Origin: Octopus vulgaris
Taxonomy: Eukaryota
Length of the DNA: 64,000 nucleotides
Assembly (NCBI GenBank): GCA_951406725.2
Contig: OX597831.1
Span: 83,886,001-83,950,000, forward strand
Reading direction: 5' to 3'
This document shows positions 4,006-41,550 of the stretch, in pieces (the stretch's first letter is position 1; the number at the start of each line of letters is the position of its first letter). The notes below the pieces were generated by a model. That model made no database searches. It was given only the letters and a program-made list of their open reading frames with translations, and had not been told where the DNA came from. Made by a program: the position numbers and the translations under genes.

Positions 4006-6121
4006 TCTATGTTTGACTTTTGCTTTATATTTGTACAAGTTGGCTCCAAGTCTCACCCAGAGACCTCAAGAGACAACAGGGTTGGAAGTTCATGTTGTTG
4101 TTATGCCTAGTGTGCCATATATTTGGGGGGTGGGGATGTTGTACTAATGAATGTCTAAAAAGAAAAAAAAAAAAAAAAAAGGTTTTTTTTTTTTTTTTTT
4201 TTTTAAACCGAAAATTATGTTTGTTTTAAACCTTGAGATTACATAGAGAGTATTTTGCGCAGGATATGAGCAGTTCCCATGAGCACTATCTTTTGAACTT
4301 CTGCCATTTTTGGGTTTCCTGGTATCTGAGTTAGGTAGCTATCAGCCCCTTTTGCTATCATTCCCAGGGCACCTATGACAACAGGTATTGTTTTAGTCTT
4401 CAGCTTCCACATTTTGCTGATTTCTATTTCAAGATCTTTATATTTGCTCAGTTTTTGGTAGGTCTTGACAGATACGTTTATATCGATTGGGACAGTCATA
4501 TCAATGAGGAGGCATGTTCTTTGTTTGAAGTTTTTCAATATGATGTCTGGCCTATTTGCATCTATCTTCCTGTCAGTTTGAATGGTGAAGTTCCAGAGGA
4601 GTGAGATGTGGTCATTTTCAAGCACTGGGGGTGGTTTGTGTTCCCACCAGTTTTTTTCATGGGGCAAATCCAGGTTTTTACAGATTACCCAGTGAATATA
4701 TTGTGCAGCTCTATCGTGCCTGTTGAGATACTCTGTAGGCGCTAGAAGACTGCACTTGGAGACCACATGGTCAATGGTTTCATTTTGTTGCTTGCATACA
4801 CGACACGTTGGACTGCTTCTGATCTTTAATATGTTGGCCTGGTAGTTTCTTGTTGGTAGGCATTGATCTTGAGCTGCTATGATAAACCCCTCTGTTTCAG
4901 ATTTTAAGCCAGAGGCCATTAGCCATTGATGGGTCAGGGCTTTGTCGATATCTGCATTATTCGCTCTCTTTGGGTATTTGCCATAGAGAGGTTTTTCTTG
5001 CCATTTATTATTCAGAATATCTAAGGCCGCAGTTTTGGCACGGGTTTTCATGCGCCTAGCTTTTTCTGTGCTTGTTTCTTGTATATCTATCTCCGAAATT
5101 GGTTGTATTCGGAATTCACTTAGATATTCCTTTGCCTGTATTGTGACTGAGTATGATGCTTTCTTGTTTTCATGTTTTGAGACAAGTTTTAGCATCCAGT
5201 CCTCAGAGTTTTTCAGGTAGGTGTCTAGGCCAATTGTAGCAATCTTCATTGTTATTGCCAGTTGCAAAAGACCACGGCCTCCCTCTTTTCTTGGCAGATA
5301 GAGTCGTTCTGTATCTGCCTTAGGGTGGTGCATTCTATGCATTGTCAACAGTTTCCTTATTTTTCTGTCGAGCTGACATATTTCAGTAATTGACCAGTTA
5401 ACAATATTGAAACTGTAAGTCACGACTGGTATAGCTAATGCATTGATTGCTTCGATCCTGTTTCTTGCATTCAGCTCTGTCTTGAGTATTGCTCTCACTC
5501 TTCGATAGCATTCTCTCCTGATCCTTTCCTTCATCTCTGAATGCCTTATTCCGTTCCCTTCAATTATCCCTAGGTACTTGTAGCTCTCCGCTGGGTCTAG
5601 TTCTTTTATGACATTCTGTTGGTCAAGGTTAACGTTAGATGTTTCTGTCATTTTTCCTTTGATAAAGGTAGCCTTTGCACATTTATCGAGGCCGAATTGC
5701 ATTCTGATGTCGTCACTGAATTGTTTGACTATCGCTAGTAAGCCCTTGAGTTGTTGATCATTTTTTGCAAAAAGCTTTAAATCATCCATGTAAACGAGAT
5801 GATTTATATTTTTATCAAACATTTTATACCCGTACTGCGCGTCATTGAGCAGCTTTGAGAGAGGTATTAAGGATAAACAAAAGAGGAGTGGTGACAGTGA
5901 GTCACCCTGGAAAATGCCACACGAAATTTTTACATCACCAGCATTTAGGAATTCACTGTCACTGTTCAGAGTTAGTGTGGTTCTCCATGATCTCATACTT
6001 ACAGTCAAGAAGTTTCGCAGAGTTGGTGCTATCTTATACATTTCAAGGCATTTTCTAATCCAGCTATGTGGTAGGCTATCAAAAGCCTTTTTATAGTCTA
6101 TCCAGGCTATTGATAAGTTTT
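4006..6121 (-). mobile_element. Young 5'-truncated R4/Dong-clade non-LTR retrotransposon in (TAA)n
   Basis: Open RT-ZnF-RLE frame plus 3' UTR ending ..GTCAAACATAGA-(AAT)n; 5' junction fused to (AAT)n. Confidence 0.93.
4239..6041 (-). CDS. R4/Dong ORF, C-terminal ~600 aa: RT (GIFQGDSLSP, YMDDLKL, YKYLG), CCHC finger (CRVC..H..C), restriction-like endonuclease (RHD, RPD..IDM..K..KY)
   Basis: Motifs read in the ORF track. The frame stays open upstream to ~6120 (LSIAWIDYKKAFDS), so the ATG is internal. Confidence 0.92.
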   Translation of the reverse strand: MYKIAPTLRNFLTVSMRSWRTTLTLNSDSEFLNAGDVKISCGIFQGDSLSPLLFCLSLIPLSKLLNDAQYGYKMFDKNINHLVYMDDLKLFAKNDQQLKGLLAIVKQFSDDIRMQFGLDKCAKATFIKGKMTETSNVNLDQQNVIKELDPAESYKYLGIIEGNGIRHSEMKERIRRECYRRVRAILKTELNARNRIEAINALAIPVVTYSFNIVNWSITEICQLDRKIRKLLTMHRMHHPKADTERLYLPRKEGGRGLLQLAITMKIATIGLDTYLKNSEDWMLKLVSKHENKKASYSVTIQAKEYLSEFRIQPISEIDIQETSTEKARRMKTRAKTAALDILNNKWQEKPLYGKYPKRANNADIDKALTHQWLMASGLKSETEGFIIAAQDQCLPTRNYQANILKIRSSPTCRVCKQQNETIDHVVSKCSLLAPTEYLNRHDRAAQYIHWVICKNLDLPHEKNWWEHKPPPVLENDHISLLWNFTIQTDRKIDANRPDIILKNFKQRTCLLIDMTVPIDINVSVKTYQKLSKYKDLEIEISKMWKLKTKTIPVVIGALGMIAKGADSYLTQIPGNPKMAEVQKIVLMGTAHILRKILSM

Positions 6122-6126
6122 TATTA

Positions 6127-6183: not shown

Positions 6184-8733
<2,550 letters not shown>

Positions 8734-9088: not shown

Positions 9089-9129
<41 letters not shown>

Positions 9130-9132
<3 letters not shown>

Positions 9133-10226
9133 ACAATTGAGGGTAAAATTAATTAAATAATCAATTTCACCAAGTGTTCAGTATGTAAAAGGACCATTTA
9201 AGGCGAATTCAAAATATTACATTATATAATTAGGGCTTAGTAAAATAAATTACTTTGCCACATACTGAACTTAGTAGAAATAGCAGCCAAAAAAAATTTT
9301 CTTAGCATTTCTACTACTTAAAGAAAATTTCTCTCAGATAATGTTTACTCTAGACAGCTCACGAAGGTTTGGGGGTAAATACAGAAAAATATCACAAGTA
9401 CATAGATCGTTTGAGTACGTCAACGTTTCAAGATTAGCCAAATAAATCAGCATTTCTTTCGTCAGCTCAAAATTTCTTAATTTGGATTTGGAAACACTAA
9501 AAGAAGGAACTTTACCTATCAGCGAACTTGTCGCTTCAGATGAACCACTCCAACTAAACAGTGTCAACAAATTCAAAATGCGCAGGCGTAAAATTCTGCA
9601 CTCCCCATTCCACCCACGTGGTCTATCTAGCAAACATTATATTTTAACCGCGAGAACCGAGGCAGTATGACCGAGAGAAATGAATTATAATATCAACAAT
9701 TGAGGGTAAAATTAATTAAATAATCAATTTCACCAAGTGTTCAGTATGTAAAAGGACCATTTAAGGCGAATTCAAAATATTACATTATATAATTAGGGCT
9801 TAGTAAAATAAATTACTTTGCCACATACTGAACTTAGTAGAAATAGCAGCCAAAAAAATTTTCTTAGCATTTCTACTACTTAAAGAAAATTTCTCTCAGA
9901 TAATGTTTACTCTAGACAGCTCACGAAGGTTTGGGGGTAAATACAGAAAAATATCACAAGTACATAGATCGTTTGAGTACGTCAACGTTTCAAGATTAGC
10001 CAAATAAATCAGCATTTCTTTCGTCAGCTCAAAATTTCTCGGTTCTCGCGGTTAAAATATAATGTTTGCTAGATAGACCACGTGGGTGGAATGGGGAGTG
10101 CAGAATTTTACGCCTGCGCATTTTGAATTTGTTGACACTGTTTAGTTGGAGTGGTTCATCTGAAGCGACAAGTTCGCTGATAGGTAAAGTTCCTTCTTTT
10201 TAGTGTTTCCAAATCCAAATTAAGAA
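9130..10226 (-). mobile_element. Retrozyme-like element: ~563-bp unit x1.6 plus inverted segment (10038-10226), 3' end in (TA)n
   Basis: Direct repeat starting 9131 and 9694; 10038-10226 is the reverse complement of ~9474-9661; one HHR per unit. Confidence 0.85.
9410..9471 (-). ncRNA. Type I hammerhead ribozyme (second copy 9972-10033)
   Basis: tttgag CTGACGA aaga..tctt GAA ACGT tg ACGT A ctcaaa: 6-bp stem I, canonical core, stem II, stem III, GUA site. Confidence 0.85.
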
Positions 10227-10254
10227 AGAGTGTGGTTGTTACTTTCTGTTGCTT

Positions 10255-10556
10255 CCTTTCAGCACGTAAAAAAAAAACGTGGCCGTTTTCAGCGCCACCT
10301 TGACTGGCTTCTGTGCCGGTGGCACGTAAAAAGCACCATCCGATCGTTGCCGCTGCCAGCCCCCCTGGTACCTGTGCCGGCGGCACAAAAAAGCACCCAC
10401 TACACTCAGAGTGGTTGGCGTTAGGAAGGTCATCCACCTGTAGAAACACTGCCAGATCAGACTGTAGCCTGGTGCAGCCTCCTGGCTTCCCAGACCCCGG
10501 TCAAACTGTCCAACCCGTGCTAGCATGGAAAACGGACGTTAAACGATGATGATGAT
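10255..10556 (+). mobile_element. SINE/RTE-related non-autonomous element 3' part with (GAT)n tail
   Basis: Internal TGCCGG(T/C)GGCAC..AAAAAGCACC repeats, GGCGTTAGGAAGG.CATCCA motif, tail GGACGTTAAACGATGATGATGAT. Confidence 0.6.
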
Positions 10557-37479: not shown

Positions 37480-37483
<4 letters not shown>

Positions 37484-40400
37484 AAATAATTAAAGGGCGG
37501 GCAGCAGGCTGCCTCGCCGCATACCGGAGGAATTAGAAATGGCAGTCAAAGACTGTTTTTTCCATTTTCTATAAGTGGATTTTCCAAATACGACGAACCC
37601 TGCGGTTCACATACGCAAAAAACGGAGTAGCAAATAAACGAAACCAATCTCTTACCGTTAATGATGAACATGTTTCTAGATCACAAGCACGAAAATAGCT
37701 TGATTTCCTTTATCAACACCATATTCGATAGATTTAGCAAATGCCACAGGCCCTCACTTCTGACCAAGCGACATCAGATAGTGGGGGGAGGTGTGCATAT
37801 GTTAAAACTAAGTAATGACTGAGAACGTAAATTTTCCCTCCAAAAATTCTGCCGTGTGTGCCGCCTGGCCGATCGCAATGGAATAAGAAATCCACATGGT
37901 AATACAATAAAAATGGTAAATAATTTTTCAGTGGTTTTTCATATAACCAACAATTATTTACCGGCAAAATTCCGGTATGTAAATATGACAAATTCATCGT
38001 CAGGAACTTCTGGAAAGTTCAGTATATAGTGAAAATAATTAAAGGGCGGGCAGCAGGCTGCCTCGCCGCATACCGGAGGAATTAGAAATGGCAGTCAAAG
38101 ACTGTTTTTTCCATTTTCTATAAGTGGATTTTCCAAATACGACGAACCCTGCGGTTCACATACGCAAAAAACGGAGTAGCAAATAAACGAAACCAATCTC
38201 TTACCGTTAATGATGAACATGTTTCTAGATCACAAGCACGAAAATAGCTTGATTTCCTTTATCAACACCATATTCGATAGATTTAGCAAATGCCACAGGC
38301 CCTCACTTCTGACCAAGCGACATCAGATAGTGGGGGAGGTGTGCATATGTTAAAACTAAGTAATGACTGAGAACGTAAATTTTCCCTCCAAAAATTCTGC
38401 CGTGTGCGCCGCCTGGCCGATCGCAATGGAATAAGAAGTCCACATGGTAATACAATAAAATGGTAAATAATTTTTCAGTGGTTTTTCATATAACCAACAA
38501 TTATTTACCGGCAAAATTCCGGTATGTAAATATGACAAATTCATCGTCAGGAACTTCTGGAAAGTTCAGTATATAGTGAAAATAATTAAAGGGCGGGCAG
38601 CAGGCTGCCTCGCCGCATACCGGAGGAATTAGAAATGGCAGTCAAAGACTGTTTTTTCCATCTTCTATAAGTGGATTTTCCAAATACGACGAACCCTGCG
38701 GTTCACATACGCAAAAAACGGAGTAGCAAATAAACGAAACCAATCTCTTACCGTTAATGATGAACATGTTTCTAGATCACAAGCACGAAAATAGCTTGAT
38801 TTCCTTTATCAACACCATATTCGATAGATTTAGCAAATGCCACAGGCCCTCACTTCTGACCAAGCGACATCAGATAGTGGGGGGAGGTGTGCATATGTTA
38901 AAACTAAGTAATGACTGAGAACGTAAATTTTCCCTCCAAAAATTCTGCCGTGTGTGCCGCCTGGCCGATCGCAATGGAATAAGAAATCCACATGGTAATA
39001 CAATAAAAATGGTAAATAATTTTTCAGTGGTTTTTCATATAACCAACAATTATTTACCGGCAAAATTCCGGTATGTAAATATGACAAATTCATCGTCAGG
39101 AACTTCTGGAAAGTTCAGTATATAGTGAAAATAATTAAAGGGCGGGCAGCAGGCTGCCTCGCCGCATACCGGAGGAATTAGAAATGGCAGTCAAAGACTG
39201 TTTTTTCCATTTTCTATAAGTGGATTTTCCAAATACGACGAACCCTGCGGTTCACATACGCAAAAAACGGAGTAGCAAATAAACGAAACCAATCTCTTAC
39301 CGTTAATGATGAACATGTTTCTAGATCACAAGCACGAAAATAGCTTGATTTCCTTTATCAACACCATATTCGATAGATTTAGCAAATGCCACAGGCCCTC
39401 ACTTCTGACCAAGCGACATCAGATAGTGGGGGGAGGTGTGCATATGTTAAAACTAAGTAATGACTGAGAACGTAAATTTTCCCTCCAAAAATTCTGCCGT
39501 GTGTGCCGCCTGGCCGATCGCAATGGAATAAGAAGTCCACATGGTAATACAATAAAAATGGTAAATAATTTTTCAGTGGTTTTTCATATAACCAACAATT
39601 ATTTACCGGCAAAATTCCGGTATGTAACTATGACAAATTCATCGTCAGGAACTTCTGGAAAGTTCAGTATATAGTGAAAATAATTAAAGGGCGGGCAGCA
39701 GGCTGCCTCGCCGCATACCGGAGGAATTAGAAATGGCAGTCAAAGACTGTTTTTTCCATTTTCTATAAGTGGATTTTCCAAATACGACGAACCCTGCGGT
39801 TCACATACGCAAAAAACGGAGTAGCAAATAAACGAAACCAATCTCTTACCGTTAATGATGAACATGTTTCTAGATCACAAGCACGAAAATAGCTTGATTT
39901 CCTTTATCAACACCATATTCGATAGATTTAGCAAATGCCACAGGCCCTCACTTCTGACCAAGCGACATCAGATAGTGGGGGGAGGTGTGCATATGTTAAA
40001 ACTAAGTAATGACTGAGAACGTAAATTTTCCCTCCAAAAATTCTGCCGTGTGCGCCGCCTGGCCGATCGCAATGGAATAAGAAGTCCACATGGTAATACA
40101 ATAAAAATGGTAAATAATTTTTCAGTGGTTTTTCATATAACCAACAATTATTTACCGGCAAAATTCCGGTATGTAAATATGACAAATTCATCGTCAGGAA
40201 CTTCTGGAAAGTTCAGTATATAGTGAAAATAATTAAAGGGCGGGCAGCAGGCTGCCTCGCCGCATACCGGAGGAATTAGAAATGGCAGTCAAAGACTGTT
40301 TTTTCCATTTTCTATAAGTGGATTTTCCAAATACGACGAACCCTGCGGTTCACATACGCAAAAAACGGAGTAGCAAATAAGCGAAACCAATCTCTTACCG

Positions 40401-41502
40401 TTAATGATGAACATGTTTCTAGATCACAAGCACGAAAATAGCTTGATTTCCTTTATCAACACCATATTCGATAGATTTAGCAAATGCCACAGGCCCTCAC
40501 TTCTGACCAAGCGACATCAGATAGTGGGGGGAGGTGTGCATATGTTAAAACTAAGTAATGACTGAGAACGTAAATTTTCCCTCCAAAAATTCTGCCGTGT
40601 GCGCCGCCTGGCCGATCGCAATGGAATAAGAAGTCCACATGGTAATACAATAAAAGTGGTAAATAATTTTTCAGTGGTTTTTCATATAACCAACAATTAT
40701 TTACCGGCAAAATTCCGGTATGTAAATATGACAAATTCATCGTCAGGAACTTCTGGAAAGTTCAGTATATAGTGAAAATAAAGGGCGGGCAGCAGGCTGC
40801 CTCGCCGCATACCGGAGGAATTAGAAATGGCAGTCAAAGACTGTTTTTTCCATTTTCTATAAGTGGATTTTCCAAATACGACGAACCCTGCGGTTCACAT
40901 ACGCAAAAAACGGAGTAGCAAATAAACGAAACCAATCTCTTACCGTTAATGATGAACATGTTTCTAGATCACAAGCACGAAAATAGCTTGATTTCCTTTA
41001 TCAACACCATATTCGATAGATTTAGCAAATGCCACAGGCCCTCACTTCTGACCAAGCGACATCAGATAGTGGGGGGAGGTGTGCATATGTTAAAACTAAG
41101 TAATGACTGAGAACGTAAATTTTCCCTCCAAAAATTCTGCCGTGTGCGCCGCCTGGCCGATCGCAATGGAATAAGAAGTCCACATGGTAATACAATAAAA
41201 ATGGTAAATAATTTTTCAGTGGTTTTTCATATAACCAACAATTATTTACCGGCAAAATTCCGGTATGTAAATATGACAAATTCATCGTCAGGAACTTCTG
41301 GAAAGTTCAGTATATAGTGAAAATAATTAAAGGGCGGGCAGCAGGCTGCCTCGCCGCATACCATGTGGACTTCTTATTCCATTGCGATCGGCCAGGCGGC
41401 GCACACGGCAGAATTTTTGGAGGGAAAATTTACGTTCTCAGTCATTACTTAGTTTTAACATATGCACACCTCCCCCCACTATCTGATGTCGCTTGGTCAG
41501 AA
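37480..41502 (-). mobile_element. Retrozyme-like tandem array: 7 x ~549 bp + 45-bp partial + inverted segment 41362-41502, within (TA)n
   Basis: Unit starts 37480, 38029, 38576, 39125, 39674, 40223, 40772, 41317; near-identical units; one HHR variant per unit. Confidence 0.9.
37661..37722 (-). ncRNA. Type I hammerhead, U3-A8 core variant (also at 38210, 38757, 39306, 39855, 40404, 40949)
   Basis: atggtg TTGATAA a-GGA-aat-CAAGC..GCTTG-tga-TCT-a GAA ACATGT T catcat. Confidence 0.7.
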
Positions 41503-41503
41503 A

Positions 41504-41550
<47 letters not shown>

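Follow-up and report, generated by a model that had tools for sequence, protein, structure and literature searches.

How a short non-coding repeat with ribozyme motifs comes to lie in the Octopus vulgaris genome as an incomplete tandem that ends in an inverted copy of itself is the question raised by positions 9130-10262 of the stretch of DNA analyzed here (64 kb, hereafter the window). The preliminary description of this locus had proposed a twin-priming-like inversion during target-primed reverse transcription of a multimeric RNA. Judged from its sequence, the element represents a dispersed non-coding repeat family residing in (TA)n, namely, a non-LTR retrozyme with the insertion anatomy of Penelope-like elements (PLEs), and the family is likely moved by the enzyme of a Penelope-like retrotransposon.

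Structure of the locus

In a sequence alignment, the element contains 1.62 copies of a 563-bp unit, arranged as two units in tandem with the minus strand as the RNA sense; the tandem of about 1.6 units described earlier was thus borne out. The complete unit (9130-9692, minus strand) is non-coding, has a G+C content of 34%, and, according to sequence comparison and end mapping, has its 3′ end at 9130, which is designated as fixed site B. This end adjoins a (TA)n target (9097-9129, strand not assigned), which was recognized from the sequence and from copies that end in (TA)n genome-wide. The second unit is truncated at its 5′ end and, by alignment, retains unit positions 216-563 (9693-10039, minus strand). 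There are no substitutions between the two units, and the second is one A shorter in an A-run, so that the RNA between the two predicted cut sites would be 562 nt at this locus rather than 563 nt. A Pfam search with the two longest frames within the unit (74 and 100 aa) gave no match, and there is no frame for a reverse transcriptase (RT) or GIY-YIG endonuclease that would qualify the element as an autonomous PLE.

The inverted block (10038-10227, plus strand) aligns with unit positions 32-220 over 190 bp, with 189 of the 190 columns identical. The earlier claim that it meets the truncation point of the second unit was correct: its far end (unit 220) overlaps that point (unit 216) by 5 nt, such that unit 216-220 is duplicated, and the block is one base longer than first described. 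At its near end, the block overlaps the main arm by 2 nt (CT, 10038-10039), and a 2-nt microhomology (AA) is found between the block and the right flank (10228-10262, plus strand). In comparison with 30 paralogues, this flank is the start of another repeat without its first 32 nt (a target-site deletion).

No sequencing run on record as RNA was listed as containing the element, and the runs compared consisted of contigs. Among the listed contigs from sequencing runs, none spans either locus-specific junction, and these contigs are uninformative on the junctions. Contigs of two runs, which we guess to be RNA, carry the unit in normal order across the ribozyme site, which is no evidence of expression. 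The sequence flanking the locus contains SINEs, and a fragment of a non-LTR reverse transcriptase (PF00078, E = 4e-19) lies at 8072-8656 on the minus strand and is partly repeated near 6000-6122.

Hammerhead motifs

Each unit carries a type I hammerhead motif on the minus strand. The first (9410-9471; motif scan and folding) has its predicted cut after GUA between 9416 and 9415; the second (9972-10033; motif scan) is identical, with the predicted cut between 9978 and 9977. The motif scan found no other type I hammerhead in the window. Both motifs have a 6-bp stem I, the CUGACGA box, a two-part stem II, GAAA, a stem III of 2 bp with a UUGA tetraloop, and the GUA cut. A 2-bp stem III with a tetraloop resembles those of invertebrate hammerheads (PMC7229834). 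The motifs had been called fully canonical, which holds for the complete core and the identity of the two copies but not for the 2-bp stem III, the predicted folding, or the Rfam result. For the 62-mer, a fold other than the hammerhead is predicted to have the lowest energy (-9.3 versus -7.3 kcal/mol for the hammerhead). No Rfam family reached its gathering score in the window, and a search of 9100-10300 at E up to 5 gave chance-level matches only, none of them a hammerhead. Stem III is self-complementary, and pairing between two copies is possible according to modeling (-7.4 kcal/mol).

The hammerhead match is not due to chance: in pattern counts over the 2.8-Gb assembly, a 27-nt stretch of it has 370 exact matches and its reversed control has none. 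The whole motif has 360 matches genome-wide, and the exact variant of this locus has 13 matches at 9 loci. Subfamilies that are 75-85% alike have retained the core, the pairing of stem I, and the palindrome of stem III, as has a family with other stems. The monomer from cut to cut also folds far better than its shuffled versions (z = -7.27; reached by 0 of 100 shuffles). Compared with the sister loci L186, L244, and L259, which have a six-base palindrome and GUU, the subfamily of this locus has two extra stem III bases and the GUA cut (window 9416-9425); from these bases, it may perhaps be a better monomer cleaver than its sisters.

The locus is among the young copies, with 0 substitutions in 471 duplicated sites and a divergence from the column majority of 0.42%, compared with a median of 0.95%. 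It is in this youth alone that the locus would serve as the best positive control for activity, as had been suggested: among nine predicted retrozyme dimers, one was cleaved in vitro and eight were not (10.64898/2026.07.22.740005).

Repeat family and classification

The 3′ hairpin has 4,781 matches genome-wide and is common to sister subfamilies of about 560 bp that are 75-99% alike. These sisters keep the hammerhead core and the stem pairing and vary in stem II; in a more distant family, about 600 bp long, the same core is combined with different stems. The tandem units with a complete type I motif (562 nt apart), non-coding nature, low G+C content, lack of LTRs, and stable monomer fold are those of a non-LTR retrozyme. 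The partial tandems, 5′ truncation, adjoining inverted copy, one-end tail between fixed sites, and (TA)n target are those of PLE insertions. The class is already known, as are inverted PLE copies with a tail, and the family studied here is an added member.

Animal non-LTR retrozymes were defined by Cervera and de la Pena (2020; PMC7229834), who showed circles and named PLEs as the likely movers. Li, Clavereau and Pollet (2026; 10.64898/2026.07.22.740005) argued that animal retrozymes derive from PLE pseudo-LTRs. The octopus family resembles the elements in both studies in its low-G+C non-coding tandem units, single type I hammerhead per unit, self-paired monomer, and co-occurrence with PLEs. 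Its 563-nt unit is longer than the 170-400 nt given in the former and falls within the 51-972 bp given in the latter. In contrast to those elements, it is dominated by dispersed partial tandems, fixed 3′ ends, a tail, and head-to-head inversions, which the available text of these papers does not describe. The literature covered, which excluded supplements and subscription papers that may bear on novelty, holds no description of this family or of the end rule reported below together with a circular template.

Fixed ends and head-to-head inversions

For the family-wide comparison, we took every insertion with an exact 27-mer match on C1-C3 (66 loci) and dropped L053 as a near duplicate of L051, which left 65; 10 further insertions found by neighboring patterns gave 75 insertions from three chromosomes. 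Of the 107 arms in the 65 insertions, 97 have a fixed end, which is site A (unit 468-488) in 49 and site B (unit 563) in 48. Nearly all fixed ends lie in (TA)n, and the two sites, which are 93 nt apart, are themselves TA-like. Many arms are long, with one exceeding 600 nt in 34 of the 65 insertions, and arrays reach 3.6 units (L004).

Head-to-head arms were found in 43 of the 75 insertions. The 45 head-to-head pairs comprise 35 with one end at A and the other at B (A+B), one B+B, no A+A, and nine with one off-site end. The A+B class thus accounts for 35 of the 36 pairs with both ends fixed (p = 5e-10 against 50%); 30 of these pairs, and the B+B pair, come from the 65 loci and five from the 10 further loci. 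Twenty-two insertions of a sister subfamily with about 85% identity gave 12 pairs, 11 of which are A+B when two ends at unit 13 and 18 are taken as B. The inner junctions mostly have 0-10 nt of overlap, and the inner breakpoints are scattered.

These counts bear on two other explanations of the inversion. Short-read assembly has difficulty with complex PLE structures (10.1101/2021.04.23.441226), and the inversion could in principle be an assembly chimera. We consider this hardly credible, given that inversions of this kind occur in 43 of 75 insertions with rule-bound ends, that the junctions here have 2-nt overlaps instead of long shared repeats and form no fold-back palindrome, and that the inverted arm has the local haplotype (0 of 171 sites differ). 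Head-to-head structures may also arise via self-priming on an antisense transcript, which is the published model for the head-to-head repeats of rotifer Penelope elements (PMC3846280), and some junctions do have short fold-back overlaps, up to 10 nt being common. Against this, the two outer ends coincide with fixed sites of the sense strand in (TA)n, with scattered inner breakpoints, the block at our locus does not mirror the sequence before the turn, and the sense RNA is the template of a PLE in vitro (PMC11167929), which makes self-priming very improbable.

Some inverted copies recur among the insertions. L032 and L039 have the same inner breakpoints (unit 116 and 279, the latter adjoining the ribozyme cut), which suggests common descent of their inverted copy. 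L256, L261, and L269 share a short inverted fragment (unit 343-472 facing 495-563) with identical breakpoints; that of L269 is located inside the AT-rich end of a GIY-YIG-coding element, so that this fragment probably spread as cargo.

Partial tandems, inverted copies, a tail at one end, and (TA)n bias have been described for PLEs, with a mechanism called undefined (Arkhipova et al., 2013, PMC3846280; Craig et al., 2021, 10.1101/2021.04.23.441226). The endonuclease-bearing PLEs of the Neptune/Naiad type are like the octopus family in 5′ truncation, partial tandems, an adjoining inverted and 5′-truncated copy, a one-end tail, (TA)n, and a hammerhead in the repeat. The octopus family differs from them in the lack of an ORF, a tail of about 85-93 nt (30-40 bp in theirs), and scattered inner breakpoints.

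A structured module at the 3′ end

Both fixed sites are located in a module that covers 9130-9297 in the complete unit (minus strand; covariation over 8 related sequences and end mapping), with a second copy at 9693-9860 (minus strand; module coordinates) inside the truncated unit. From 5′ to 3′ on the minus strand, covariation supports a closing stem (9269-9261 with 9185-9177), hairpin A (9259-9233), and hairpin B (9171-9141), and end mapping places site A at about 9223-9214 and site B at 9130. Each fixed site lies just 3′ of a hairpin that ends in CCC, and the 9-bp closing stem encloses hairpin A and site A. Over the 8 related sequences, 93% of the cells pair. Both sides have changed in 9 of the 28 module pairs (compensatory), a number reached by 0 of 500 shuffles and compared with at most 5 in slid controls; this test leans in favor of the module because the structure came from the same alignment. 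Based on its structure and ends, the module is likely a region for protein binding and for the start of reverse transcription.

The same two-hairpin 3′ module occurs in another array in the window (37480-41510, minus strand), which has about 7.3 copies of a 549-bp unit, one of which was in the training set of the module model. This array ends at an A-type site in (TA)n and has an inverted piece at its 5′ end; the motif scan found no type I hammerhead in it, and it has no credible Rfam match.

A comparable arrangement is known from the Poseidon PLE of the green anole (PAc), in which two RT start sites bound the tail, both strands are cut and extended, and a dimer is predicted (Frangieh et al., 2024, PMC11167929). 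PAc and the octopus family are alike in having two tail-bounding RT starts near a stem-loop 3′ of the hammerhead and an AT-rich target cut on both strands. The start sites in the octopus family are TA-like and thus share microhomology with the target, whereas those of PAc are not homologous to the cut DNA. Furthermore, the DNA ends in the octopus genome use different sites (35 of 36 pairs), whereas the start sites of PAc show no strand difference in vitro (PMC11167929).

Source of the template

To characterize the template, haplotypes were compared among 86 loci at 16 diagnostic sites, with L094 left out for its internal rearrangement. Divergence was 0.75% between tandem units, 0.85% between opposite arms, and 1.9% between insertions. 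Diagnostic alleles were shared in 80 of 88 comparisons of tandem units and 46 of 50 of opposite arms, compared with 4,387 of 31,059 (14%) between insertions. This sharing indicates that both arms come from one haplotype; the shared alleles represent one source haplotype, not strictly one molecule. New alleles present in all units of an array require a single-unit bottleneck.

Copying continues past the ribozyme cut. Crossings of the cut are free of indels in 134 of 135 cases, a count that is partly biased because 65 of the 97 loci were chosen by a 27-mer that spans the cut. There are 400 matches just 3′ of the cut and 370 spanning it, and a start close to the cut (unit 276) occurs in one of the 10 further loci. 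In a first tally, also biased by the choice of loci, 5 of 140 arms had their 5′ end at the cut.

A circular monomer fits both the haplotype and the crossing data and is at least as likely a template as a linear multimer. The alternative is that the same machinery copies an uncleaved linear multimer transcribed from a genomic array, with the ribozyme having another role or none. Arrays of up to 3.6 units (L004) could supply such an RNA, precise crossings of the cut site would be expected from it, and the lizard PLE uses unprocessed RNA in vitro (PMC11167929). We nevertheless regard the linear multimer as rather unlikely: all units of an array carry the subfamily alleles (80 of 88), which points to the single-unit bottleneck, the arms of A+B pairs often cover the same unit positions, which would require a source of at least three uniform units, and the hammerhead is conserved across subfamilies.

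The inversion at the locus

The inverted arm at this locus ends off-site and not in (TA)n, unlike the majority of the family. The repeat in its right flank has 823 exact matches genome-wide; among its 30 paralogues, 29 have GTAA before the junction point and 23 have (TA)n 31-40 nt upstream. This repeat (10228 onward; L280-L309), which we take to be Helentron/HINE-like, begins with CTAG beside (TA)n, with a GC-rich hairpin close to that end, and the deletion at the locus ends at the base of this hairpin.

Among the nine other pairs with an off-site end, three are contiguous within 20 nt (L088, +9; L092, +4; L105, -19; p about 0.02), with the reservation that this class is small and that the 20-nt window was chosen after the data were seen; L082 is at +39. 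The A+B pairs are contiguous in 4 of 30 cases, compared with 2.2 expected. Comparison of inversion breakpoints in other copies thus found the contiguity again in a few off-site pairs, but 35 of the 45 pairs are not contiguous and end at the two fixed sites. Inversions of twin-priming-like geometry are a genuine minority, associated with loss of the target end.

In L1 twin priming, a 5′ block is inverted in place and contiguous with the truncation, with a small duplication and microhomology at both joints. Our locus shares the contiguous in-place inversion, the small duplication, and the microhomology at the joints; it differs in that it has no poly(A), that no target-site duplication was seen and a target deletion is found instead, and that contiguity is exceptional in its family. 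The twin-priming reading of the preliminary description was therefore sound in its target priming, in an RNA longer than one unit in effect, in an inversion copied from the same RNA (alleles shared in 46 of 50 comparisons versus 14%), and in its geometry at this locus, where the block adjoins the flank with 2-nt microhomology and a 32-nt target deletion; it does not describe the rule of the family. Together, the contiguity, the 32-nt deletion, and the 2-nt microhomology indicate an atypical, repair-type event, for which the 2-nt microhomologies are weak support.

The contiguous inversions are most plausibly explained by second priming at the stall position of the first cDNA. The main rival is a flip at the DNA level, in which the cDNA or the insertion broke near unit 218 and the distal 189 nt (10038-10227) were rejoined in inverted orientation through microhomology repair, with loss of the 32 nt of flank. 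The same contiguity would be expected from such a flip, the break lies in an AT-rich stretch, homology at the junctions is limited to 2 nt, and part of the target is deleted. Second priming accounts more simply for the 3-5 nt duplicated at the breakpoint and for the tendency of the family to dual priming, and with zero substitutions between the arms, little time is left for a flip after insertion. Accordingly, we judge the flip an improbable, if serious, contender.

Search for an autonomous partner

Many intact 781-aa frames with an RT, a C-terminal GIY-YIG domain, and a CX4CX2C linker occur in the genome, as do other, broken PLE families; suitable enzymes thus exist in this genome. A CX4CX2C linker of this type has been described for Neptune elements (10.1101/2021.04.23.441226). 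We examined 38 GIY-YIG loci, mostly of one family, which were drawn from 148 scored matches of 6,136 candidates. One young PLE family, represented by L134 (930-6172) and nine similar loci, has the intact 781-aa RT/GIY-YIG frame, a preceding second frame of up to 479 aa, 456-bp terminal repeats, and (TA)n flanks; the motif scan found no hammerhead in it.

DNA comparison found no similarity between the 781-aa PLE loci and the unit, and profile and covariance-model scans found the unit or the module as an own end of the PLE at 0 of the 38 loci. L149 was rejected as a module-bearing PLE, since its module match is a separate insertion. A far from exhaustive search for a partner via sister hammerhead and hairpin patterns and the L149 family found only non-coding sister families. 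The octopus family thus differs from non-LTR retrozymes in that no autonomous PLE with direct homology to it turned up among the 38 loci, and this absence counts against the explanation that we favor.

Proposed mechanism

We consider it reasonably probable that the locus is a young insertion of a non-LTR retrozyme, copied in trans by a PLE RT-endonuclease that primed both (TA)n cut ends on the same, probably circular, RNA. The observations are the family, its target, the fixed ends A and B, the tandem read-through, the one-haplotype arms, and the A+B rule, which the following steps would connect. Tandem copies would be transcribed, and their hammerheads would cut out a monomer of 562-567 nt that is ligated to a circle. 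A PLE-type RT-endonuclease likely cuts (TA)n on both strands; a protein dimer would bind the two-hairpin module and initiate cDNA synthesis on one DNA end at B and on the other at A. Both cDNAs would proceed around the template and be joined head to head via a few nucleotides of microhomology.

At our locus, synthesis of the first cDNA would have begun at B and come to a halt at unit 216-218, 1.62 rounds later. At the other DNA end, the rest of the (TA)n and 32 nt of the neighboring repeat would have been lost, and this loss likely led to off-site priming by 2-nt microhomology at the stall position of the first cDNA (a primer switch that is twin-priming-like). The second cDNA would then have copied 189 nt and joined the first at the CT overlap.

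The combination of A+B ends, one haplotype, and no stop at the cut favors dual priming on one, likely circular, RNA. This explanation is also supported by the match with published PLE traits, namely, partial tandems, an inverted 5′ copy, a tail, (TA)n, and two RT starts. The lowest-energy fold, which hides the hammerhead, counts against it, as do the in vitro results for the lizard PLE, in which unprocessed RNA is used, ribozyme cleavage is not needed, and start sites show no strand difference (PMC11167929). More tentatively, and with somewhat less than even confidence, we suggest that pseudo-LTRs, tail, and inversion could all result from rolling-circle dual priming by a dimer on one circular, ribozyme-made RNA with two hairpins, with this locus as a primer-switch fallback after end resection.

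The value of these results lies in the family-wide counts; the inversion flagged at this locus is atypical and alone carries little weight. The family is short and young and has hundreds of near-identical copies, and its counts constrain the mechanism. The 170-nt structured module may provide a minimal template for the existing in vitro PLE assay. How the tandem and inverted structures of PLEs arise is a question that such family counts make testable.
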